Source of the DNA: a virus
Virus record (IMG/VR): IMGVR_UViG_3300014050_000017
Span: 1 to 64,000 of that record
DNA length: 64,000 nt
Reading direction: 5' to 3' (one strand)
Part shown: in pieces, positions 4,900 through 38,979 of the stretch
How positions within the stretch are numbered: position 1 is the first letter of the stretch
Layout of the letters: each line of letters opens with the position of its first letter
Notes under the pieces: generated by a model
Database searches by the model: none
Told to the model about the DNA's origin: nothing
What the model saw: only the letters and a program-made list of their open reading frames with translations
Program-made: the position numbers and the translations under genes

Positions 4900-4999
4900 A
4901 CCCAAACTATAGCAGGCTACTGCCTCCCCAATCTATGTGTAGGTACTCATGTTACCTGCCACCCCCGCGCTCGGGCGTGTCGTCTAACCCCTACCCCCC

Positions 5000-5073
5000 T
5001 GTGGATAAGTAGATGAACAAAAGATGAACAATAATAGCCCTAGTTGATAGGTGTCGGGGCTATCCATTAGGCT
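5000..5073 (+). promoter_or_regulatory. Cassette 1: DnaA box + tandem TGAAC repeat + sigma-A-type promoter
   Basis: TGTGGATAA 5000-5008; TGAAC 5014 and 5025; -35 TTGATA 5044; -10 TAGGCT 5068. Confidence 0.8.
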
Positions 5074-5099
5074 AGGGCTACCAACGAAAGGGGAACATT

Positions 5100-5384
5100 A
5101 TGGACATGACCATTAGCAAGTCGCTAGTTCATGGATTTATCCGTAATCTCAATGGCAAGTTCTTTACCATTGAGTTCGTCAAGCGCACTACGGGGGAATA
5201 CCGCGTTATGCGTGCCACTACCAACTATGACTCAAAGTTAGCGGGTGGCGACCTAGCCTACGACGCTAACGCCAAGCAACTTATCCCAGTATGGGACATG
5301 GATAAGAAAGCGTTTCGTAGTATCCCAACCGACGCGGTCAAGGTTATCCGCGCCCTCGGTAATACTTACAAGGTGGTTGAATAA
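5100..5384 (+). CDS. SH3/WYL-like fold protein (DUF2693-like)
   Basis: FTIEFVKRTTGEYRVMRAT...IPVWDMDKKAFRSIP signature; SD GAAAGGGG. Confidence 0.7.
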   Translation: MDMTISKSLVHGFIRNLNGKFFTIEFVKRTTGEYRVMRATTNYDSKLAGGDLAYDANAKQLIPVWDMDKKAFRSIPTDAVKVIRALGNTYKVVE

Positions 5385-5738
5385 ATGAAGCACGCAATTC
5401 ACATGGAGGGGGGCAGGTCGCTAAGCGACCTGCTCGACACCGAGACATTCCGTAACGCCTCAGTAACGGACACGCTCAACGGCAACGGGGTTATGGTAGC
5501 CCTACACTCTGCCCGTCATGTAGTCGATACCATGACCCTAAGCGGTTATGACTCAGACACTATCGCCTACGCATTCGAGAAGCCATGGAAGTATCCAGAA
5601 TTCTGGCTCCCAGCCCTCTACATTCATGGAGTTCTCTACGGCATCGGCGGACGCCGACTCTACACCGCCTTTATCAGTGATGTGGAATACGACGATAACC
5701 ACACATTCACTATCAAGGAACTCGAACCAACGGAATAA
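5385..5738 (+). CDS. Hypothetical protein
   Basis: ORF track; abuts upstream stop. Confidence 0.65.
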   Translation: MKHAIHMEGGRSLSDLLDTETFRNASVTDTLNGNGVMVALHSARHVVDTMTLSGYDSDTIAYAFEKPWKYPEFWLPALYIHGVLYGIGGRRLYTAFISDVEYDDNHTFTIKELEPTE

Positions 5739-5742
5739 GGTT

Positions 5743-5770
5743 AGAGGCGCGGACTTCCCCCCGCGCCTCT
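5743..5770 (+). terminator. Hairpin after gene, C-rich loop
   Basis: AGAGGCGCGG-ACTTCCCC-CCGCGCCTCT. Confidence 0.6.
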
Positions 5771-5867
5771 CTCGATTCCCCGTAGGGGTATGGGGAGGGT
5801 GGGTCAACACAAACATTAGAACGGCATAGGGACTGGCAAAGGAACCCCAGGAATAATAAAGAGAGCC

Positions 5868-5964
5868 TGTGGATAACTCGGTAAACAAGCCTGTGGATAA
5901 CTAAGTAAACAATAAGTGAACAAATTCAAACTGGCTTGCGTCTCATAAGGTTATCGAATAAGTT
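5868..5964 (+). promoter_or_regulatory. Cassette 2: two DnaA boxes + repeat + promoter
   Basis: TGTGGATAA 5868 and 5892; half-sites 5882, 5906, 5917; -35 TTGCGT 5936; -10 TAAGTT 5959. Confidence 0.8.
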
Positions 5965-6004
5965 TATCTCAGTGGGCAAGGGGCTCACAGAAAGTAGGTT
6001 AAAA

Positions 6005-6241
6005 GTGGATACATCCACTCAAGCGACACCAGTCGCTACCGATTACCTAAATAAGGTAATCACTCTCCGCAACGCCAAGTATTTTGGCACTGTTCAATCA
6101 GGTCGCTGTGAAGCGGTCACAATCACTGAACAAGGTGTTCAGTCAGTGAACATCGAGGGAATCGGCGACATCCGCGTCGCTGATGACTCTGATTACCAGC
6201 AGGGCTCACACTACTACTGGAACATCGAGTCAGTTCTCTGA
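6005..6241 (+). CDS. Hypothetical protein
   Basis: GTG start at 6005 after SD-like GAAAGTAGGT; the longer ORF-track start overlaps the promoter. Confidence 0.65.
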   Translation: MDTSTQATPVATDYLNKVITLRNAKYFGTVQSGRCEAVTITEQGVQSVNIEGIGDIRVADDSDYQQGSHYYWNIESVL

Positions 6242-6317
6242 TAGTTTCTATCGCCCCTAGTCGCAAGGCTAGGGGCGGTGGTGATTATCATAGGATAATC
6301 AGAAAGGGGGGTGAGCC

Positions 6318-6461
6318 ATGGACCCACGTCTATGGATGGCTCAGGTCTATCGCCAGTTGCGCGGTAACGAGCTGCTTAAGCAGTTTGAAACCGATATCAA
6401 CAATTGCCAAGGACCTGACGACGCTATTGCAATCTGCAAGCGTTACCTAGCATTGGCATAG
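6318..6461 (+). CDS. Hypothetical protein (47 aa)
   Basis: SD GAAAGGGGGGTGA; MDPRLWMAQ...YLALA*. Confidence 0.6.
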   Translation: MDPRLWMAQVYRQLRGNELLKQFETDINNCQGPDDAIAICKRYLALA

Positions 6462-6467
6462 CAAGGA

Positions 6468-6500
6468 GCCCCGCGTCGCAAGGCGCGGGGCGCTTTGTTT
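6468..6500 (+). terminator. Intrinsic terminator
   Basis: GCCCCGCG-TCGCAAGG-CGCGGGGC followed by a T-rich tail; same loop as the hairpin at 6252-6277. Confidence 0.7.
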
Positions 6501-6551
6501 GTGTTGGCCCGCCCACCCCGTTTATTTAATTGGGAGTTTTGGGAGGAGAGC

Positions 6552-6624
6552 TGTGGATAACTTAGTGAACACCAGGTGAACAATCAAAAACCTAGTAGAC
6601 ATGCGGAAAGTGTTCAAATATAGT
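6552..6624 (+). promoter_or_regulatory. Cassette 3: DnaA box + repeat + promoter
   Basis: TGTGGATAA 6552; TGAAC 6566 and 6577; -35 TAGACA 6596; -10 TATAGT 6619. Confidence 0.8.
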
Positions 6625-6665
6625 TTAGGTAGTGGGCAAGGGGCTCACAGAATAGGGGTTAAATT

Positions 6666-6869
6666 GTGCAAGAAGTTATATTCTACAACGGTTTCAACTT
6701 ACTCGTTGACATCGTCCTATGTTCGATTGTTGGATTCTTATCCTACAGGGCAGGAAAGATATCAGGTTACTTCAAGGGTTACAGTGACGGTGAAAACGAT
6801 TACAAGGACCGAGCAGAACAAGAAGCCGAGTATTACTACAACAGCATGCGAGAGGATTCATGGTCATGA
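6666..6869 (+). CDS. Small membrane protein
   Basis: TM segment then GKISGYFKGYSDG; SD AGGGG. Confidence 0.65.
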   Translation: MQEVIFYNGFNLLVDIVLCSIVGFLSYRAGKISGYFKGYSDGENDYKDRAEQEAEYYYNSMREDSWS

Positions 6870-7165
6870 AGTTACAGTGTAACCAAAAGGAAGCCATGGA
6901 CCGCATCGCGGCCCGTCAACCATTTGAGGCGTCAGCCTTGAGCGGTAAATATTGCAACTATACGCCTGGCGCAGGGCGCCTAGGCTCAGAGTATGACAGG
7001 CTTATTAGTGACTTTAAAACAGGCGCTTACGTAGTCTTCTCATATTCAACACCAATCGCCTGGTATGGGGCCAATGGTTGGTACGTAGTACAGGAGAAGT
7101 TCTCCCCTACTACATCCAAGCAACAGAATTACGTGCGACGAGCGGTTACCGTCATAGCCGCTTAG
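6866..7165 (+). CDS. Hypothetical phage protein
   Basis: ATGA coupling; YVVFSYSTPIAW...SPTTSKQQ motif. Confidence 0.7.
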   Translation: MKLQCNQKEAMDRIAARQPFEASALSGKYCNYTPGAGRLGSEYDRLISDFKTGAYVVFSYSTPIAWYGANGWYVVQEKFSPTTSKQQNYVRRAVTVIAA

Positions 7166-7177
7166 AAACCCCCTGGC

Positions 7178-7207
7178 AAAAGGCCCTCGAGAAATCGGGG
7201 GCCTTTT
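7178..7207 (+). terminator. Intrinsic terminator
   Basis: AAAAGGCCCTCGA-GAAA-TCGGGGGCCTTTT. Confidence 0.75.
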
Positions 7208-7220
7208 GTTATGCAGAGAA

Positions 7221-7298
7221 TGTTTGTGTTGACCACCCACCATCCCCACGCTAACACCATACATTGGCATTAAGCGAAGCTTAATGCCAACACAAACA
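7221..7298. repeat. TGTTTGTGTTG...CAACACAAACA inverted-repeat element with inner GCGAAGC hairpin
   Basis: Arms 7221-7231 and 7288-7298; perfect TTGGCATTAAGC-GAA-GCTTAATGCCAA at 7264-7290. Confidence 0.75.
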
Positions 7299-7307
7299 CC
7301 TGCGGCC

Positions 7308-7405
7308 TGTGGATAACTTAGTGAACGGGGCTGTGGATAACTCCGTTAACGGAAGATGAACAATAATAATCCTATTTGAAAGATTGAGATTGCTCATAGT
7401 AGGCT
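7308..7405 (+). promoter_or_regulatory. Cassette 4: two DnaA boxes + repeat + promoter
   Basis: TGTGGATAA 7308 and 7332; half-sites 7322, 7346, 7357; -35 TTGAAA 7376; -10 TAGGCT 7400. Confidence 0.8.
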
Positions 7406-7452
7406 AAGGACATGCGGGAAAGTCCCGTATACATAGTGAGAGGGGGCGCCAC

Positions 7453-8463
7453 ATGGCGCACGCACTAGAGGTTGAGAATGGCGAGGTAGCCTTTGCGCTA
7501 CGCGGTGCACCCGCGTGGCATGGCTTGGCTAATCGTACATTCTCCGCCGACGAGCATGTCTCAACCGCAGACATGCTATCCGCTGCTAAATTAGCAGACT
7601 GGAATGTCCGACTAGAGGACGTTCAATACCCAGCGGGTTACCGCTCAAAGTCCGACCTATTTATGGTCGTACGCACCAACCCATTCGACCAAGGCACCGA
7701 CGTGCTATCGGTCGTTGGTAAGCGCTACCGCGTATTCCAAAACGAGGAATTGTTCACATTCGGGGATAACATCCTCGACGGTGGCGCCTCATGGGAATCC
7801 GCAGGTTCAATCAAGGACGGCAAGGTCGTATTCGGCTCTCTCGTCGTACCTCGTGAGTTCATTCTCGACCCACAAGGTGCCAATGATAAGACTACTACTT
7901 ATCTGCTCGTTCACACATCACACGACGGTAGCGCCAGCGTTCAGGCGTCTATCACACCAGTGCGCGTCGTTTGCCAAAATACGCTACACGTTGCACTCAA
8001 TAACACTAAGTCCTCATTCAAGTTGCGCCACACTCTCAAGGTAGAGGGTCGCGTTGCAGAGGCTCGCCTCGCTCTTGGGCTCACATTCAATTACATGGAT
8101 GAGTTTGAGTCCATCGCTAAGTCTCTCTTTGAGACCTCAATGTCCAACGCTCAATGGGATAAGTTGGTCAATGCAATCTACCCAATGCCCGACGCTAATC
8201 AAGTCGCGCCACAAGTCATGACTAAGTGGCAAGCCAAGCGCGACCTACTGGATGATATCTATCACCAGTCACCAACCCAGACCAACATCAAGGGTAACTA
8301 CTGGGGCGCCCTTAACGCTCTCACCGAGCGTATCGACTACTTCCGCTCAGGTCGCACCGCCAATGGCGAGGCACTTATCGGAGCAGCCAGCGGGTTCGAC
8401 CCAGTGGTCAATGCGGAAAAGTCTCGCATCATGCGAGCAGTCCGCGAGTTGGCTAACGCTTAA
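7453..8463 (+). CDS. DUF932 family phage/plasmid protein
   Basis: PAWHGL, YRVFQNEE, YLLVHTSHDGS, TPVRVVCQNTL, WGALNALTE motifs. Confidence 0.85.
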   Translation: MAHALEVENGEVAFALRGAPAWHGLANRTFSADEHVSTADMLSAAKLADWNVRLEDVQYPAGYRSKSDLFMVVRTNPFDQGTDVLSVVGKRYRVFQNEELFTFGDNILDGGASWESAGSIKDGKVVFGSLVVPREFILDPQGANDKTTTYLLVHTSHDGSASVQASITPVRVVCQNTLHVALNNTKSSFKLRHTLKVEGRVAEARLALGLTFNYMDEFESIAKSLFETSMSNAQWDKLVNAIYPMPDANQVAPQVMTKWQAKRDLLDDIYHQSPTQTNIKGNYWGALNALTERIDYFRSGRTANGEALIGAASGFDPVVNAEKSRIMRAVRELANA

Positions 8464-8474
8464 GTAAGCCTACT

Positions 8475-8501
8475 AGCCCCCCGCACCCAGCGGGGGGCTT
8501 T
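8475..8501 (+). terminator. Intrinsic terminator
   Basis: AGCCCCCCGC-ACCCA-GCGGGGGGCT-TT. Confidence 0.7.
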
Positions 8502-8524
8502 GGCATGCCCGCATTTAGCTAAAA

Positions 8525-8611
8525 GTTTGTGTTGGGGCTTGCTGAACAGTAGCTATATATGTATAGGTAGTGTTCGAAAACAGCACCTATACAGCAAGCC
8601 CCAACACAAAC
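8525..8611. repeat. Long hairpin element (20-bp perfect arms)
   Basis: GTTTGTGTTGGGGCTTGCTG 8525-8544 / CAGCAAGCCCCAACACAAAC 8592-8611. Confidence 0.85.
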
Positions 8612-8628
8612 AAGCCTATCAGCAGGGC

Positions 8629-8703
8629 TGTGGATAACTAAATGAACAGGAGATGAACAATCACTACGCTGGCTTGCGTTATGTCGGGAGTCTAAATTAG
8701 ACT
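8629..8703 (+). promoter_or_regulatory. Cassette 5: DnaA box + repeat + promoter
   Basis: TGTGGATAA 8629; TGAAC 8643 and 8654; -35 TTGCGT 8674; -10 TAGACT 8698. Confidence 0.8.
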
Positions 8704-8781
8704 CGGCGTAGTGAGAAATACTCACACAAGTAGAGATAGGAGAAATCCAATGCTACCTAGAGACTCTAGGGAACGACTCTA

Positions 8782-9216
8782 ATGACGAAGGGGGGTGATA
8801 CTATCTTTACACGCAACAACGCTCAACTCATTGAGCAACAGCAAGTGCCAAATCCAATGGCGAAGGGGCACTTCTTTACCAACATGACCGAACTTCTTTG
8901 GTCTGATGGGACTATTACATTCGGTTGCCTCATCTGTGGCGACCAAATGGACTCACGCCCACAACTCTCAATCCACATTGGCAAGGCTCACAACCCTGCC
9001 AAACCTAAAAAGCCTACTAAGAAGGCTACCCGCAAATACACTAAGCGCAATACAGAGTATTGGGCTAATGGTGGAAACATCAACCAAAACCGACCAACAA
9101 CCGACCAAACGCTAACCGATAAGGAACTAGCGTTTTGGAAGGCGCAAGCGCACAAGGCAGAAGCGGAAAACCGCAAACTGCGAGCGCAACTCAAAGCCCT
9201 ACTAAACATAAAGTAG
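8782..9216 (+). CDS. C2H2 zinc-finger protein with basic linker and C-terminal coiled coil
   Basis: CLICGDQMDSRPQLSIHIGKAH; KPKKPTKKATRKY; AEAENRKLRAQLKALL. Confidence 0.7.
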   Translation: MTKGGDTIFTRNNAQLIEQQQVPNPMAKGHFFTNMTELLWSDGTITFGCLICGDQMDSRPQLSIHIGKAHNPAKPKKPTKKATRKYTKRNTEYWANGGNINQNRPTTDQTLTDKELAFWKAQAHKAEAENRKLRAQLKALLNIK

Positions 9217-9296
9217 GCAGGGTTTCTCACCCCCCGTGAGAATAGTCCTGAGCATGACTCCAAACTGCTCATCTAACAAAGCCTAAGGGGGCTAAA

Positions 9297-9692
9297 GTGG
9301 CAACAACCATAAAGGTAGATAGGCTAGTCCTATTACAAGCACTAACGGCTAAACTAGCCGAGCAAGACCAACTTCGTGCCGACTACAAGAAGGCAGAGGA
9401 AAAATACAAGAAGGCAACAGAAACCTTTGCTAATAAGATTATGACATTGGTAAAAGGTGGCAAGTTAGAAGTCGCAAACACTAACTATCGTTCTTGGCGT
9501 GATGAACTAGAAATCACTATCAAGATAGATAAAGGCGTTATGCCAACCGAGCCTGAACAACCTAAGCGTCCTGACGCATGGCTACACGATAGCGATTACG
9601 AGGAACTCCGTAAGACTATCAAGTTGCTAGGTATGACGGCAGACCCAAGCGTGCCTACAAGCGTGTATAAGTCTGTATCACAATGGCTCTAA
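9297..9692 (+). CDS. Hypothetical protein
   Basis: SD AAGGGGG, GTG start. Confidence 0.7.
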   Translation: MATTIKVDRLVLLQALTAKLAEQDQLRADYKKAEEKYKKATETFANKIMTLVKGGKLEVANTNYRSWRDELEITIKIDKGVMPTEPEQPKRPDAWLHDSDYEELRKTIKLLGMTADPSVPTSVYKSVSQWL

Positions 9693-9703
9693 AATAAGAC
9701 TAC

Positions 9704-9734
9704 GAAGCCCCCGCAGAGATGCGGGGGCTTTCTT
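9704..9734 (+). terminator. Intrinsic terminator
   Basis: GAAGCCCCCGCA-GAGA-TGCGGGGGCTTT-CTT. Confidence 0.75.
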
Positions 9735-9822
9735 GTTTGTGCTGGGCTTGCTGTAATAAGTAGCTATCTCGGTATAGGTACGGATTTCATCACTGCCTAT
9801 ACCAGCAAGCCCAGCACAAACA
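9734..9822. repeat. Long hairpin element, paralog of 8525-8611
   Basis: TGTTTGTGCTGGGCTTGCTG 9734-9753 / CAGCAAGCCCAGCACAAACA 9803-9822. Confidence 0.85.
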
Positions 9823-9843
9823 TAATAGGGCTGAGAGATGGCC

Positions 9844-9952
9844 TGTGGATAACTAGGTGAACAACGTATGAACAACCCTGTGGATAACTAAGTGAACGAG
9901 AGATGAACAATTACAAATGTAATGGAGAAAAGAGAAAGAGTTATAGTAGATT
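9844..9952 (+). promoter_or_regulatory. Cassette 6: duplicated DnaA box/repeat unit + promoter
   Basis: TGTGGATAA 9844 and 9879; TGAAC 9858, 9869, 9893, 9904; -35 TGGAGA 9923; -10 TAGATT 9947. Confidence 0.75.
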
Positions 9953-9978
9953 AGGCACACCTACCGAAGGGGGGGACT

Positions 9979-10506
9979 ATGAACAGTATTGAACGCAAGG
10001 AGCGTTTTACTGAACTAATGGCAACAATAGAGTTGTTGCCAAGTATAGAGGACGAAAACTACGAGCCTAAGTTTCCTAAGGGAACACTAGGCTTATCAGA
10101 CGGACGACTAAAGACCGCTATCATGGTTCAAGCCATGAAAAATGATGAGGAGTTTCAAGGCAACCTTATCAACGCACTAGCAAATACAGGTCTAGAAGCG
10201 TGCCAACAAAAGCACATGAACGGCGAAATGCCTAACGAGGACGACATAGCCTCGGTATGTATGGCTATCCATGTAGCGTGGGCGGCAGGTGCGTTATCGC
10301 CTATGCTAATAATCCTAGGTATCGCAAGTAAGATGTTCGCAGTATGCGACATTGAAATACCTGACGACCTCACACTTATCTTTCGTCCTAATCAGGGCAT
10401 GAAGGATAAAGCGCCACAGTTAGACCCGATAGCCCTATTAGAGTTAGATAAGGAAGGGCTATTTGACCTACTAAAGAAGGGTTATGAAAATGACTCTGAC
10501 GAGTGA
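9979..10506 (+). CDS. Hypothetical protein
   Basis: SD GAAGGGGGGG. Confidence 0.7.
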   Translation: MNSIERKERFTELMATIELLPSIEDENYEPKFPKGTLGLSDGRLKTAIMVQAMKNDEEFQGNLINALANTGLEACQQKHMNGEMPNEDDIASVCMAIHVAWAAGALSPMLIILGIASKMFAVCDIEIPDDLTLIFRPNQGMKDKAPQLDPIALLELDKEGLFDLLKKGYENDSDE

Positions 10507-10735
10507 TAAAAAGACTCCCGACGGGCGCCGTATGGTAGCCCTACCATTCAAAATTGAGTTCGTTGCCTATGTAGAGGAGCATAAGTTCCTAGAACACATG
10601 ACCTTAGTAGGTGGCGAGTTAGATAGGCTTATCAACATGCACGAGGCATGTGCAGTAGATGTGCTAGACATAGACAAGCAGTTGGTTGATAAACAACGAG
10701 GCTGGAAGGAAGTCCTCGTAGAAAGGGTGCAATAA
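10484..10735 (+). CDS. Hypothetical protein
   Basis: ORF track; overlaps upstream gene. Confidence 0.6.
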   Translation: MKMTLTSDKKTPDGRRMVALPFKIEFVAYVEEHKFLEHMTLVGGELDRLINMHEACAVDVLDIDKQLVDKQRGWKEVLVERVQ

Positions 10736-10736
10736 A

Positions 10737-11222
10737 ATGGGTATGGATGTGTATGGCAAAGCGCCGAAGTCCGAACGCGGGGAGTATTTCCGCAATAATA
10801 TATGGTGGTGGCGACCACTATGGGATTATTGCGAGGAAGTAGCCCCTGACCTCTGCTCCAATGTAGATGGACACTCCAATAGCGGAGATGGTCTTGACGA
10901 CAAGGGCGCAGAACAACTTAGCCAAATCCTCAAGATAAGGCTATCTGATGGGTCTGTAGATAAGTACGCTCAAGAACGGGAAGTCTATCTATCAGCCCTA
11001 CCAAAGGAAGTATGCGATTTCTGTGACGGAGTGGGTATCGTACAGGTGAAGGAAGGCTGGCCTGACTATGTAGAAGGGCAAGTAACCTTTAGAGACCCAT
11101 GTAACGCATGCAACGGCACTAAGGAGAAAGAACCATGGCAACGCCATTACCCATTCTCCAAGGAAAACGTAGAAGAGTTCGCAGAGTTCCTAGCAGATAG
11201 CGGTGGATTTGAAATCTGTTAG
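10737..11222 (+). CDS. Hypothetical protein with DnaJ-type CxxCxGxG zinc motifs
   Basis: MGMDVYG...YFRNNIWWWRPLW; CDFCDGVG, CNACNGTK; FLADSGGFEIC. Confidence 0.75.
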   Translation: MGMDVYGKAPKSERGEYFRNNIWWWRPLWDYCEEVAPDLCSNVDGHSNSGDGLDDKGAEQLSQILKIRLSDGSVDKYAQEREVYLSALPKEVCDFCDGVGIVQVKEGWPDYVEGQVTFRDPCNACNGTKEKEPWQRHYPFSKENVEEFAEFLADSGGFEIC

Positions 11223-11247
11223 GACGGAACCCCTTCCTATCCATCGC

Positions 11248-11283
11248 ATAGGGCTATCAGTTTCGGCTGGTAGCCCTATTTTA
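11248..11283 (+). terminator. Intrinsic terminator
   Basis: ATAGGGCTATCAG-TTTCGG-CTGGTAGCCCTAT followed by a T run. Confidence 0.75.
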
Positions 11284-11326
11284 TTGCCGCTAAGTTACTG
11301 GCCAGTAGCTCTCCAGGCCGCGGAGA

Positions 11327-11470
11327 TGTTTGTGTTGGCCCACCCTCTCGTATTTTGGTATTAAATTATACCAAAATACTCGTACCCACCCTGAATGACG
11401 CCTTTTTTAATATAAAAAAGGCGGTCATTGCTAATTGGGCTATGGCTTTAGCCATTAGCCCAACACAAAC
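11327..11470. repeat. TGTTTGTGTTGG...CCAACACAAAC element enclosing three hairpins
   Basis: Arms 11327-11338 and 11460-11470; inner GTATTTTGGTAT/ATACCAAAATAC, GCCTTTTTTA/TAAAAAAGGC and GGGCTA/TAGCCC. Confidence 0.75.
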
Positions 11471-11472
11471 CC

Positions 11473-11557
11473 TGTGGATAACTTGGTTAACAGGAGATGA
11501 ACATTGGCTGAGAGAGAGAGAATTGGCTTGACGGCAGAGAGAGCGAGAGAGTAGGCT
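11473..11557 (+). promoter_or_regulatory. Cassette 7: DnaA box + repeat + promoter
   Basis: TGTGGATAA 11473; half-sites 11487 and 11498; -35 TTGACG 11528; -10 TAGGCT 11552. Confidence 0.75.
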
Positions 11558-11669
11558 CGGAGATTTTGCCCTCTCGGCTACTGCCACCCCGTCTAATAGG
11601 CTTGTTAAGCGCAAGGCCAGATTTAATAGCCTTATCGCCAAGTCCTATCAGCATGAGAGAGAAGGGGGT

Positions 11670-11742
11670 TGTGGATAACTATATGAACGGCAGATGAACA
11701 AATGGGTGGAGAGTGTAGTTAAATGCGGAAATAGGTTAGAGT
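11670..11742 (+). promoter_or_regulatory. Cassette 8: DnaA box + repeat + promoter
   Basis: TGTGGATAA 11670; TGAAC 11684 and 11695; poor -35 TGTAGT 11714; -10 TAGAGT 11737. Confidence 0.7.
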
Positions 11743-29273: not shown

Positions 29274-29555
29274 TTAACGTGCACTGACATCAAAGACGAT
29301 GGCTGATATCTGGCCGTCATGGCTCTCAATGCTGGTAAACCCTGGAATACAGATTAAATCCATACCTCTTGGGGCGGTATACCCACGGGCAATGGCAATG
29401 GCTTTTACAGCCTGGTTGATAGCTCCAGCCCCCACAGCGCGAATCTTGCAGGCGCGGGTCTCATAGATGCTATGAGCAATGGCTGATGCTACGGCTTGTG
29501 GGTTAGACCCAGCGCTTACACGCAGGACCTGGTCATCTTTCAGTTCTTCTGACAT
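29274..29555 (-). CDS. spoVS: SpoVS family protein
   Basis: LRVSAGSNPQAVASAIA...AVGAGAINQAVKAIAIARG...IPGF. Confidence 0.9.
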   Translation of the reverse strand: MSEELKDDQVLRVSAGSNPQAVASAIAHSIYETRACKIRAVGAGAINQAVKAIAIARGYTAPRGMDLICIPGFTSIESHDGQISAIVFDVSAR

Positions 29556-31580: not shown

Positions 31581-32043
31581 GACTACTAGATGTACGGCGA
31601 GTTAGTTCTCGGCTGGTCAATGAGTAATAGCGTTCAATGTTATCTAGGATAGTACGAATCATCTTGTGATAGGCGCGGGCATAGGCATACGCATCAGCCA
31701 GCTCACGCACTGCAGGCTCATTCTCAACCTGGGCACGTAATAACGTGGCTTTCTCTGATGCTTTGCCAGTGGTCTTAGACAGTAGTCCAGAACCAACCGC
31801 ATCGTTGTATAGGGTTTCGGACTCTAACTCTGCCAGTTCAGCACAGGCTGCCTGGGTGCGTAGAAAGTTCATGTTTTCAATGTACTTGCTAGCCATACTC
31901 ATTAACTCTGTGTCATCCACTAAAGTAATGTCGTTTGGAAAGTCTGGTAGTTCTAGGTTAAGGGAGCGTTTTAATGGCAACCCTTGTTCTTCTAATTGCC
32001 TTAGTACCTGTGCGCTTATTCCTGTGGCCACTAGTTCAGTCAT
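31549..32043 (-). CDS. Helical protein in recombination module (possible recombination mediator)
   Basis: Start MTELV after GGAGG; coiled coil ending SRELTRR; lies between nuclease and resolvase. Confidence 0.55.
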   Translation of the reverse strand: MTELVATGISAQVLRQLEEQGLPLKRSLNLELPDFPNDITLVDDTELMSMASKYIENMNFLRTQAACAELAELESETLYNDAVGSGLLSKTTGKASEKATLLRAQVENEPAVRELADAYAYARAYHKMIRTILDNIERYYSLTSRELTRRTSSSRVTGFNRYAP

Positions 32044-32893
32044 TGTATCCTCCGCATCGTTCGCAATTACCCCAACCATCAATGTTGCACGGTGGTGGTG
32101 TTTGATTTTTTACCGCTTCTACAATTTTAGCAGCAGCCTCAAACAAAGGCGCAACTGAGAAATCACTCTTAGGTATTACAAACTCTTTGGGTTCCTGTGA
32201 TGCTTTGTTTTCATAAATAAGAACAGCCTCTTGCGGTACAACATCAAGATTTAAAAGTTCAGCAAGCTTCATATATATCTGTACTTGATTAATATGGGAC
32301 TCAAATGGAGCTTTGATGGCAGCAAACGCCTTATCTAAATCACCGTTATGCTCCATAAATAAAGATGGGTCTTCCCAACGAATAGTGCCTGCACCAATTG
32401 ATTTAATCTCCAACATCAATGGCTCACCTAGGTTTACTAATATGCCATCAGAATGACCATAGATACGAAGTGGCTCGTAAAATAGCGGAACCTCTCTATA
32501 CTCTAACGGTCCATCATGGCAATCAGAACCGCCAAAAAACATCTCACCGCACTCTATGCAGTACCACTTACCGTATAGCGTTCCCATATCTTGAAACCAT
32601 CGTTGCCACTTAGCGTGAATAGCATGGCCTTCAGCAAATACCGATGCTGTACGTAGAGTCATAGAACGGTTGGCTACAGGAGCCTTACCCATCAAATGGT
32701 AATAAGAAGCTCTGTGGCACCACTCTTTTTTAACCATATCTGACGGATGCAGTACATCGGTACGACGGCTTAAATCTCGTGGCTTTGCAATTAGATGGCG
32801 CTCAAGTGAGCCTAATACACGTGTTTTCTTTCTAGACACGTCTACAAATGCTTTCAGTGCCCCTGTTACCTGTTGTGGCTTTTGTGCTTTCAT
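32036..32893 (-). CDS. Cas4-like PD-(D/E)XK exonuclease
   Basis: HPSD..WCHR, GHAIH, GHSDG, LEIKS, QVQIY, C-terminal C..C..C. Confidence 0.85.
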   Translation of the reverse strand: MKAQKPQQVTGALKAFVDVSRKKTRVLGSLERHLIAKPRDLSRRTDVLHPSDMVKKEWCHRASYYHLMGKAPVANRSMTLRTASVFAEGHAIHAKWQRWFQDMGTLYGKWYCIECGEMFFGGSDCHDGPLEYREVPLFYEPLRIYGHSDGILVNLGEPLMLEIKSIGAGTIRWEDPSLFMEHNGDLDKAFAAIKAPFESHINQVQIYMKLAELLNLDVVPQEAVLIYENKASQEPKEFVIPKSDFSVAPLFEAAAKIVEAVKNQTPPPCNIDGWGNCERCGGYND

Positions 32894-32895
32894 GT

Positions 32896-33213
32896 CTAGA
32901 CCTTATCATCAAATAGGTGCTCCTTTAAAGTCTTGCCTTCTTTTTTTAATTTACGCTTTAACGCGTTACGTTCTCGATGGCTAAGACCACCCCAGATACC
33001 ATGCTGTTCATCCATCTGGTCTGAGTACAACAAGCACTGCTTGCGTACTGGGCATTCTGGCAGGCCGTCACGGCCAAAGCAGACACCCTTAGATATTGTT
33101 GCTACTTTTCTATATTTAGTTTTATCACGTGGTGGAAACCAAAGTTCGGTGTCCATGCCGCGGCATTTGGCGTTATGTCGCCAACCCTCTACGTGACCTG
33201 CGTCGTCGTACAA
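32896..33213 (-). CDS. whiB: WhiB-family transcription factor
   Basis: WRHNAKC, WFP, C...CPVRKQC, GIWGGLSHRER. Confidence 0.92.
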   Translation of the reverse strand: MYDDAGHVEGWRHNAKCRGMDTELWFPPRDKTKYRKVATISKGVCFGRDGLPECPVRKQCLLYSDQMDEQHGIWGGLSHRERNALKRKLKKEGKTLKEHLFDDKV

Positions 33214-33530
33214 TTATGCTCCTGAAGGTTCTGGCGCATTTCCAGAAAATCATCTTCAGTTAGCAATATGTAATTGTTATTGTTAAGACTGAAACCGAGG
33301 ACGGGTGTCCGACTATCAACGATGGCTTCGTTAACAATCTTTTCTAGTACTGCTGCCTTGACAGTTACCTGAGTTTTGCCAGTCCACTTGTGTTCTATTA
33401 ACAAGTCCTTAGACCTAACATCACCCTTACGACTCCAAAACGCGCCACTGGCAGCATTACGCTTACCACCAACAAGCTTTGCTAGTCGAGCCTCGTGCTT
33501 CTGAGATTCCTTTTGGCCTTTACTCCTCAT
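33189..33530 (-). CDS. Hjc-like PD-(D/E)XK resolvase
   Basis: HEARLA...SGA...KGDV...IEHK. Confidence 0.75.
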   Translation of the reverse strand: MRSKGQKESQKHEARLAKLVGGKRNAASGAFWSRKGDVRSKDLLIEHKWTGKTQVTVKAAVLEKIVNEAIVDSRTPVLGFSLNNNNYILLTEDDFLEMRQNLQEHNCTTTQVT

Positions 33531-38117: not shown

Positions 38118-38585
38118 TCATCTATTAAGCTCGGCACTCTTTATAGAGTCCCAAGCCTCAGCTATTGCGTTAGTCAATTGCTGGTTAGGCCATTGTATCC
38201 TAGTTTTATCTAGAAGTCCAGCCTTTCCAAACAACTCTACCGCCTTTTCAATCTGAGCCCGCGAGTATAACCTGCGGCCTCTTTGTGTTTCGCCGTTCTT
38301 TGTTTCTTTATCAGCCAAACGATATGGCGCCTGTGGGATATAGCCTTCTTTAATCCAGTAACGGATTGTTACAAGGGGTCTACCCAAAGCCTGCGCTAAT
38401 GCGCCTACCTGATAAAACTCGTGTAGTTCTCCTGATGGTAGTTTCCTGAATACAGCAGTAGTAGTCCAGTCAGAACCATCTTTATTTATTCTTTTATTTT
38501 TTTCTTTTGTCTCACGACGTTTCTTTTTGCTGCCTGGATAGTATGTATCCAAGTCAGAAAACATCGCATCAATTTCATCTGACAT
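38118..38585 (-). CDS. MerR-like HTH DNA-binding protein
   Basis: YQVGALAQALGRPLVTIRYWIKEGYIP...RRLYS. Confidence 0.8.
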   Translation of the reverse strand: MSDEIDAMFSDLDTYYPGSKKKRRETKEKNKRINKDGSDWTTTAVFRKLPSGELHEFYQVGALAQALGRPLVTIRYWIKEGYIPQAPYRLADKETKNGETQRGRRLYSRAQIEKAVELFGKAGLLDKTRIQWPNQQLTNAIAEAWDSIKSAELNR

Positions 38586-38586
38586 A

Positions 38587-38979
38587 TTACTTCCCAACGA
38601 TAAACGCGTAACTCACCTTTGCTGGGAACATGGTATCAATATCTTCTTCAGATAGATGACCGTTATAAAAAGCAGCCATAATCGCTGCCTCATCTAATGT
38701 TGGAACCATTTTAATGCAGGTCTCACGGATACCTTTTTTGGTAAGAATGATTTCTGCTGCACTGATATCAAGACTCTTTGACACACGCTTTTGTTTCATG
38801 ATTTGTTCGTTCTCATCTACAGATAGAACGATGTGTCCTTTTTCATCCTCTGTACCAAACTGTTCAATGTTATCTGTCAGACGCTTTTTAATATCTGACT
38901 GACGTTTGGTTAGAAGGTCGACGTTATCTTTCAACGCCTTGAATTGGCGGATGTCTTCTTTGATTGCTTCAATGTCCAT
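38587..38979 (-). CDS. Hypothetical protein
   Basis: ORF track; SD AGGA. Confidence 0.7.
   Translation of the reverse strand: MDIEAIKEDIRQFKALKDNVDLLTKRQSDIKKRLTDNIEQFGTEDEKGHIVLSVDENEQIMKQKRVSKSLDISAAEIILTKKGIRETCIKMVPTLDEAAIMAAFYNGHLSEEDIDTMFPAKVSYAFIVGK

Follow-up and report, generated by a model that had tools for sequence, protein, structure and literature searches.

The genes for host takeover and anti-defence found in phage early regions are the fastest to change and are mostly unknown, and their packaging and exchange are poorly understood outside the T4-type phages. The attC sites, which lie between cassettes and act as folded single-stranded DNA, are built from short conserved end boxes that pair with each other and an interior conserved in structure. 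In the T4-type phages, spacers composed of a terminator and a promoter, termed PeSL (promoter-early stem-loops), flank small variable early genes and serve as exchange points (PMC2839356, PMC4122927). The stoperators of the cluster A mycobacteriophages are single, asymmetric sites oriented with transcription (PMC9283540, PMC6550527), and the cluster O phages carry 17-bp palindromes (PMC4351075).

The locus described herein lies in the first 64 kb (the window) of an 80-kb IMG/VR virus record. Two hairpins in the window, designated elements A and B, are members of an undescribed and strongly supported family, for which 78 unique long-stem elements have been collected from about 35 related uncultured myophage contigs.

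The phage and its early cassette array

The record derives from a myophage, which encodes a tail sheath protein, PolA, a class II RNR, an SNF2 helicase, a CobS/CobT-like pair and a DUF932 protein, together with WhiB, RecA, DnaB, a primase, a DnaC-like loader, a resolvase-like protein and a SpoVS-like protein. No match to cultured phages was obtained by blastn. The nearest neighbours of PolA, at 41% identity, belong to Streptomyces phages, and because WhiB is present as well, an actinobacterial host is suggested as probable. A set of core genes is found on the minus strand at 29274-29555, 33189-33530, 32896-33213 and 32036-32893; it includes a SpoVS-family (Alba-like) protein (29274-29555, Pfam E 4e-29), a Holliday-junction-resolvase-like protein that adjoins RecA (33189-33530, phrog_2002 E 8e-23), a WhiB factor and a protein with a weak Cas4-like nuclease match.

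Positions 5000-11700 harbor a plus-strand array of about seven cassettes, each of which is constructed from a 35-nt motif, a promoter, one to three small genes and an intrinsic terminator, and nearly all of the cassette genes lack a Pfam or PHROG match. The 35-nt motif consists of TGTGGATAAC and two TGAACA repeats about 11 nt apart and is located upstream of each early promoter; 11-12 copies, all on the plus strand, occur in 4999-11703 (13 matches versus 1.95 expected). The DnaA box that had been proposed downstream of the hairpins is indeed present there, but it represents the first 10 nt of this repeated motif rather than a lone box. A predicted sigma-A-type promoter (TTGnnn / TAnnnT, hexamers assigned partly by direct reading) follows 10-15 nt 3' of the motif. 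Every terminator-promoter gap of the array contains the 11-mer GTTTGTGTTGG or its complement, in the form of two long hairpins, two pairs with an 11-bp stem, and two single copies beside a C-rich tract, one per orientation (6497 and 5804). The features of these gaps are as follows.

5780-5814, minus strand: motif-plus-C-rich element in reverse orientation, its G-rich sequence on the plus strand
6497-6520, plus strand: single base motif and C-rich tract (CCCGCCCACCCC), directly 3' of a terminator
7222-7297, no strand assigned: short-stem (11-bp) member before the DUF932 gene, with the same end motifs and no long stem
8475-8501, plus strand: predicted intrinsic terminator of the DUF932 cassette, GC stem and short T run, 23 nt upstream of element A
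8525-8611, no strand assigned: element A, outer arms 8525-8544 / 8592-8611 (from sequence, fold and a place among the top covariance-model matches)
8525-8535 / 8601-8611: base motif of element A
8536-8544 / 8592-8600: variable arms of element A
about 8545-8560: unpaired AT-rich stretch of element A
about 8561-8591: inner hairpin of element A
8628-8661, plus strand: 35-nt promoter-upstream module after element A, TGTGGATAAC and two TGAACA repeats
8674-8679 (-35, TTGCGT) and 8697-8702 (-10-like, TTAGAC), plus strand: putative promoter after element A, hexamers assigned by reading
9704-9731, plus strand: predicted intrinsic terminator of the 8782-9692 cassette, T run adjoining element B
9734-9822, no strand assigned: element B, outer arms 9734-9753 / 9803-9822 (from sequence, fold and a place among the top covariance-model matches)
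9735-9745 / 9811-9821: base motif of element B, C:G variant at position 8
9843-9911, plus strand: two tandem 35-nt promoter-upstream modules after element B
11328-11470, no strand assigned: 143-nt member with three internal hairpins, in which the 11-bp motif pair alone forms the closing stem

At the position orthologous to the short-stem member (7222-7297), two relatives (L024 and L028) carry a long-stem hairpin, while the 143-nt member is kept in relatives with compensated changes. The terminator layout seen at 8475-8501 recurs in 46 related contexts.

Several further observations were made in the array. The base motif accompanied by CCCACCC-type runs constitutes a second composite element, present in both orientations (5780-5814 and 6497-6520 in the window, and relatives), and four plus-strand G runs in the copy at 5780-5803 could form a G-quadruplex. 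Upstream of the CobS/CobT-like operon, a 470-bp spacer (11223-11693) contains two DnaA-box modules, GAGA-rich runs and the 143-nt multi-hairpin element (an AT-rich near-palindrome), and looks like a replication origin. The first gene after element A (8782-9216, plus strand) has, on direct reading, a CxxC...HxxxxH stretch resembling a C2H2 zinc finger; no Pfam or PHROG match was found for its product.

The two hairpins of the window

The preliminary description had reported hairpins at 8525-8611 and 9734-9822, each with perfect 20-bp arms, and this anatomy was reproduced in every particular: 8525-8544 pairs with 8592-8611 and 9734-9753 with 9803-9822, without any interruption. Between the two copies, the T:A pair at stem position 8 of A is replaced by C:G in B, and one G:C pair is absent from both arms, just as had been claimed. 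Both copies contain AGTAGCTAT within the unpaired stretch on the 5' side, and 3' of this stretch an inner stem formed by GTATAGGT and (A or G)CCTATAC; element B thus also has variable arms, an unpaired stretch and an inner hairpin. The placement of each hairpin after a terminator (8475-8501 and 9704-9731) and before a promoter was likewise borne out, with TGTGGATAAC located downstream at 8629 and 9844.

Folding energies calculated with DNA parameters are -30.3 kcal/mol for A and -28.5 kcal/mol for B, versus about -9 for shuffled sequences (z -9.9 and -8.7; 0 of 200 shuffles equally good). RNA parameters gave the same picture, with -46 and -48.5 kcal/mol for the two hairpins. The z-scores range overall from -8 to -10, and the minus strands are equally stable.

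The element family in related phages

The first search pattern fixed only the two 11-mers and retrieved 38 loci on about 30 viral contigs of 45-98 kb, which share 65-85% identity with the window in coding DNA. The 70 unique elements of this first scan fall into two classes, with a perfect stem of 11-12 bp in 19 and of 18-26 bp in 51 and nothing between; about a quarter of the motif pairs lack a long stem, and stems of 13-17 bp, which would be expected of decaying intermediates, were not found among the elements. In the extended collection the long stems measure 18-31 bp, and one reaches 42 bp.

The base of the stem is an invariant motif of 11-12 bp, GTTTGTGYTGG (hereafter M), represented in a sister clade by TTGTTGAGTTGG, whereas the arms beyond M are hypervariable. 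M always lies at the stem base, in either polarity: in both clades there are flipped elements, in which the C/A-rich strand forms the 5' arm. Single copies also lie beside a C-rich tract, pointing either with or against transcription. The 11-mer occurs in 8-13 intergenic copies per genome, versus 0 for a reversed control, and each phage genome carries 3-6 copies of the element. In complete genomes the elements are the sole long perfect inverted repeats besides one or two terminators, and they are grouped in the early region. Their position, 3' of an intrinsic terminator and 5' of a promoter module with the "DnaA box", is shared by the family. The preliminary description had rightly recognised two related copies; that they belong to a clade-wide family located at every early terminator-promoter junction, and that their 11-bp base is conserved, had escaped it.

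The hairpins occupy the same junctions throughout the clade; they are syntenic and exhibit no presence/absence polymorphism. In some of them the whole hairpin, with its interior, is better conserved than the adjacent coding DNA (95% versus 77-84%); element B and its orthologues in L024 and L039 share 95% identity. Across about 35 contigs M does not vary. The repeats upstream of the promoters do, even among close relatives, where the layout is retained but built from other sequences (GTTAT, GGCGTGTC), a pattern that looks like one of phage-specific early regulators combined with a constant base motif of the hairpins. The elements can be used as a practical marker of cassette boundaries in this uncultured clade.

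A few members or neighbours of the family are unusual. At L028:972-1047 and L047:3552-3627, the motif variant GTTTGTGTCGG pairs with CCGACACAAAC, which constitutes a further compensated change in the otherwise invariant motif. At L090:7378-7473, a perfect palindrome has 42-bp arms, and the sequences flanking the arms are complementary as well. It contains in both arms the base motif in flipped polarity and promoter-upstream repeats, and is probably a divergent promoter pair that arose by inverted duplication. parS-like perfect palindromes (GTTTCACGTGAAAC) adjoin hairpins at L006:2469-2482, L028:2292-2305 and L030:489-502; none was found in the window within 2 mismatches. Helical phasing of the two motifs was considered and dismissed, the length distribution giving no sign of it.

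Covariation and perfection of the arms

For the homologues, MAFFT alignments placed the arms out of register, and end-anchored counts as well as alignment to a covariance model were used instead. The model was built on the outer 18 pairs, and all matches were aligned to it. In this alignment 99.6% of the cells are paired, compared with 78.8% in 500 shuffles, not one of which attains the real figure; the covariation score is 0.437 versus 0.085, and changes on both sides are seen in 16 of the 18 pairs; when the partners are slid, pairing falls to 34-45%. The alternatives offered earlier for the two copies of the window, namely selection on structure or arm-to-arm conversion, are thus supported by strong covariation among homologues.

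The perfection of the stems is strict. The 78 long-stem elements comprise 1800 bp of perfect stem, 919 bp of which lie beyond M, and not a single G·U or mismatch is included. Stem positions 12-18, which were unconstrained by the search, hold all four Watson-Crick pair types, with 0 G·U or mismatch in 357 pairs; at position 8 both T:A and C:G are seen, but T·G never. By comparison, 42 G·U occur among the 589 pairs (7%) that make up the main helices of 46 neighbouring terminators, a highly significant difference from the outer stems (Fisher p about 3e-18). Among related copies, 21 substitutions and 6 indels were counted, all of which are mirrored in the other arm and none of which is unmirrored; the indels occur without a bulged intermediate. 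One orthologous pair has a near-identical interior but four substitutions and one indel between its arms, each of them mirrored.

An invariant base, wobble-free hypervariable arms, mirrored indels and independence of polarity point either to a structure that forms on both DNA strands or to active copying from arm to arm, and either alternative would be an unusual and testable mechanism.

Reshuffling of early cassettes

The early ORFs of all 38 loci were clustered into families and mapped. Cassette order and content vary among the relatives, with the elements at each junction. A zinc-finger-like gene family precedes DUF932 in two lineages and follows it in three, and another family lies 5' of DUF932 in one phage and 3' in another. 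In a close relative, one cassette is inserted between two cassettes of the window and is flanked by duplicated modules consisting of the hairpin plus 33 nt. The hairpin core can itself change place: a common core, set in unrelated flanks, lies 5' of DUF932 in two genomes and 3' of it in another two, and between L050 and L048 the homology breaks off about 20 nt into a 5' arm and is restored about 13 nt short of the end of a 3' arm. The ends of homology blocks are 2.7-fold enriched near M, a figure confounded by the conservation of M next to variable arms and not used as evidence.

No target-site duplication was detected, and flanking direct repeats did not exceed chance. Scanning of about 80 ORFs disclosed no integrase, transposase (Y1, DDE), HUH enzyme or tyrosine recombinase. 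Phylogenetic profiling gave no information on a partner protein, since the phages that have DUF932 but lack the hairpins are otherwise unrelated.

Possible role of the elements

The earlier guess that the elements act as DNA has gained strength from the lack of G·U pairs, the mirrored indels, the folding of both strands, the use of either polarity and the position outside the predicted transcription units. The occurrence of M in both polarities, and singly in both orientations, fits a site that is read as duplex DNA, and the inclusion of promoter-upstream repeats in the palindrome with 42-bp arms implies that palindromes form at the DNA level. Although this falls short of proof, the balance of evidence favours a role at the DNA level.

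The explanation that we tentatively prefer is that the elements are DNA-level boundary modules, in which paired protein-binding motifs are set in a self-correcting palindrome, and that they serve as recombination joints as well. M at each terminator-promoter junction would be read as duplex DNA by a conserved protein, either a phage core protein or a host factor; candidates include the SpoVS-like, resolvase-like and MerR-like (38118-38597) proteins and the zinc-finger ORFs. At most junctions, two inverted copies of M would stand at the base of a long perfect palindrome, which could fold back on either strand, as a hairpin in transient single-stranded DNA or as a cruciform under negative supercoiling; extrusion of a cruciform from the duplex would be kinetically hard with interiors of 12-57 nt. 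A change in one arm might then be copied to the other by intrastrand template switching or hairpin-templated repair, or alternatively selection might act on a structure required of both strands. Cassettes and hairpin cores would be swapped between phages at the conserved modules, which would serve as joints, and the elements may have an insulating or a recombination role. The RecA, Holliday-junction-resolvase-like and SpoVS/Alba-like proteins encoded by the phage are counted in favour of the boundary module, as are the constancy of M, the bimodal stem lengths, the variable cassette order and the recurrence of one hairpin core in unrelated flanks.

Several other explanations compete with it. 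The elements might work as RNA hairpins on read-through transcripts, where cutting by RNase III or stabilisation of 3' ends would separate and insulate adjacent early messages in the manner of the T7 R sites, and a number of properties agree with such a role, which is rather unlikely but a serious competitor. The elements adjoin the T run of a terminator and the U tracts of many of these terminators are poor, so that their transcription by read-through is plausible; stems of at least 18-20 bp fit RNase III, and as RNA the hairpins have a very high folding stability. Relative to the direction of transcription, the interiors are asymmetric in a mostly constant sense, with the longer unpaired stretch on the 5' side in 31 elements and on the 3' side in 10, and G·U pairs are in modest excess on the plus strand of the inner helices (7.9% versus 4.4% on the minus strand), which together hint at a strand-specific, possibly RNA, role. 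The outer stems argue against it: no G·U is present in the 919 variable pairs, compared with 7% in bona fide RNA stems nearby, and the mirrored indels are seen without a bulged intermediate. Moreover, RNase III needs no invariant base motif, let alone one that is used in either polarity and as unpaired single sites in both orientations, and the elements lie 3' of terminators, not within a polycistronic message. No overall strand preference emerged from the folding energies either (12 clusters equal, 9 plus, 3 minus; p = 0.11, not significant), and a strand test based on the types of 1x1 mismatches had too few cases. Two assignments of parts of the element to transcription signals were rejected. 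A sigma-70-type promoter within the 5' arm (TTGTGT, 17 nt, TATTnA) appears only where the stem is 25 bp, with the final T missing and the spacing unconserved, and the left motif does not serve as the distal U tract of the terminator, since flipped-polarity elements have the C/A-rich strand there.

The variable order and content of the cassettes, the hairpin at every junction and the inserted cassette between duplicated hairpin modules recall an integron- or transposon-like recombination site, at which a recombinase would recognise the folded DNA, with M as the core, and move the cassettes. Conserved ends with structure-conserved variable interiors are attC-like, and the sister-clade motif includes GTTGAGT, which fits GTTRRRY. 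Such a site is nevertheless distinctly unlikely, considering that about 80 scanned ORFs include no integrase, transposase or HUH enzyme, that the motif of the window departs from the attC core and the perfect stems have no extrahelical bases, and that every cassette has its own promoter and terminator; target-site duplications, copies in bacterial genomes and presence/absence polymorphism are all lacking, the elements being syntenic. It is likewise improbable that the long stem is a by-product, in which only the inverted pair of M would be functional, in an operator-like manner, and would seed templated growth and self-correction of a palindrome during replication. This would account for the place of M at the outer stem end whatever its polarity, for arms that remain perfect even after indels, for the bimodal stem lengths, and for the quarter of motif pairs without a long stem, one of which replaces a hairpin at an orthologous junction. 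It is harder to reconcile with hairpins that are more conserved than the flanking coding DNA down to the interior, with the retention of hairpins at the same junctions clade-wide and the missing 13-17-bp stems, and with the smaller inner hairpins, which have not been perfected. Finally, the palindromes might be the sites of recombinase-independent or RecA/resolvase-driven cassette exchange, a reading that we consider slightly less likely still. Transcription-driven supercoiling would extrude a cruciform whose junction is flanked by M, the phage Holliday-junction resolvase or a motif-binding partner would cut it, and the ensuing repair would swap cassettes and re-perfect the arms; if true, this would represent a DNA-structure-based analogue of the integron in lytic phages.

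Comparison with known systems

No match to a known MITE, REP or terminator family, nor to any Rfam family, was found for the elements. Searches of Rfam returned only hairpin-shaped matches below the gathering score (miRNA precursors, leader peptides; E 0.007-0.9), and 596 Gb of bacterial genomes contained 5 unrelated matches, about the number expected by chance, which argues that the elements are not host REP or MITE sequences. In common with REPIN/REP (RAYT) and MITE sequences, they are hairpin repeats, about 70-100 nt in length, whose ends are conserved and whose stem changes are compensated. In contrast with those families, only 3-6 copies are present per phage genome, restricted to terminator-promoter gaps and differing from copy to copy in arm sequence, and neither a transposase, a target-site duplication, an insertion polymorphism nor a copy in bacterial genomes accompanies them.

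The early RNase III hairpins of T7 are likewise long, lie between early genes and have asymmetric interiors and stems of about two helical turns. The T7 sites, however, lie inside one long transcript and tolerate non-canonical pairs, whereas the elements follow predicted terminators, lack G·U and have a sequence-invariant base. They also differ from intrinsic terminators, in that no T run follows the 3' arm; the next base is A in 35 of 51 elements. With attC the elements share conserved pairing ends and an interior that is variable in sequence but conserved in structure. The window motif GTTTGTG does not fit RYYYAAC/GTTRRRY, though; GTTGAGT is found only in the sister-clade motif, and only the rare flipped-polarity elements show the attC order. 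In addition, the stems are perfect and free of extrahelical bases, no IntI is encoded among the about 80 ORFs, and the cassettes have their own promoters and terminators.

For a short repeated intergenic site in actinobacterial phages, the stoperators are the nearest precedent. Like them and the palindromes of cluster O, M is a short conserved site repeated in intergenic gaps, and the sites of those phages are read by a phage protein on duplex DNA; unlike stoperators, the sites described here are mostly inverted pairs that close a long variable palindrome and may have either polarity. The whole spacer, with its terminator, its promoter and its shuffling, behaves like a PeSL cassette. The spacers hold a terminator with a GC stem and T run and a TTGnnn / TAnnnT promoter, the order of the cassettes varies, and swaps are bounded by the modules, as revealed by the 38 mapped loci and by the breakpoints between L050 and L048 at the hairpin arms. 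The PeSL stem-loop is itself the terminator, while in the present phages a separate palindrome of about 70-95 nt is located between terminator and promoter; PeSL have no counterpart of this motif-based palindrome, which characterises an unrelated group of phages with a probable host from an unrelated phylum.
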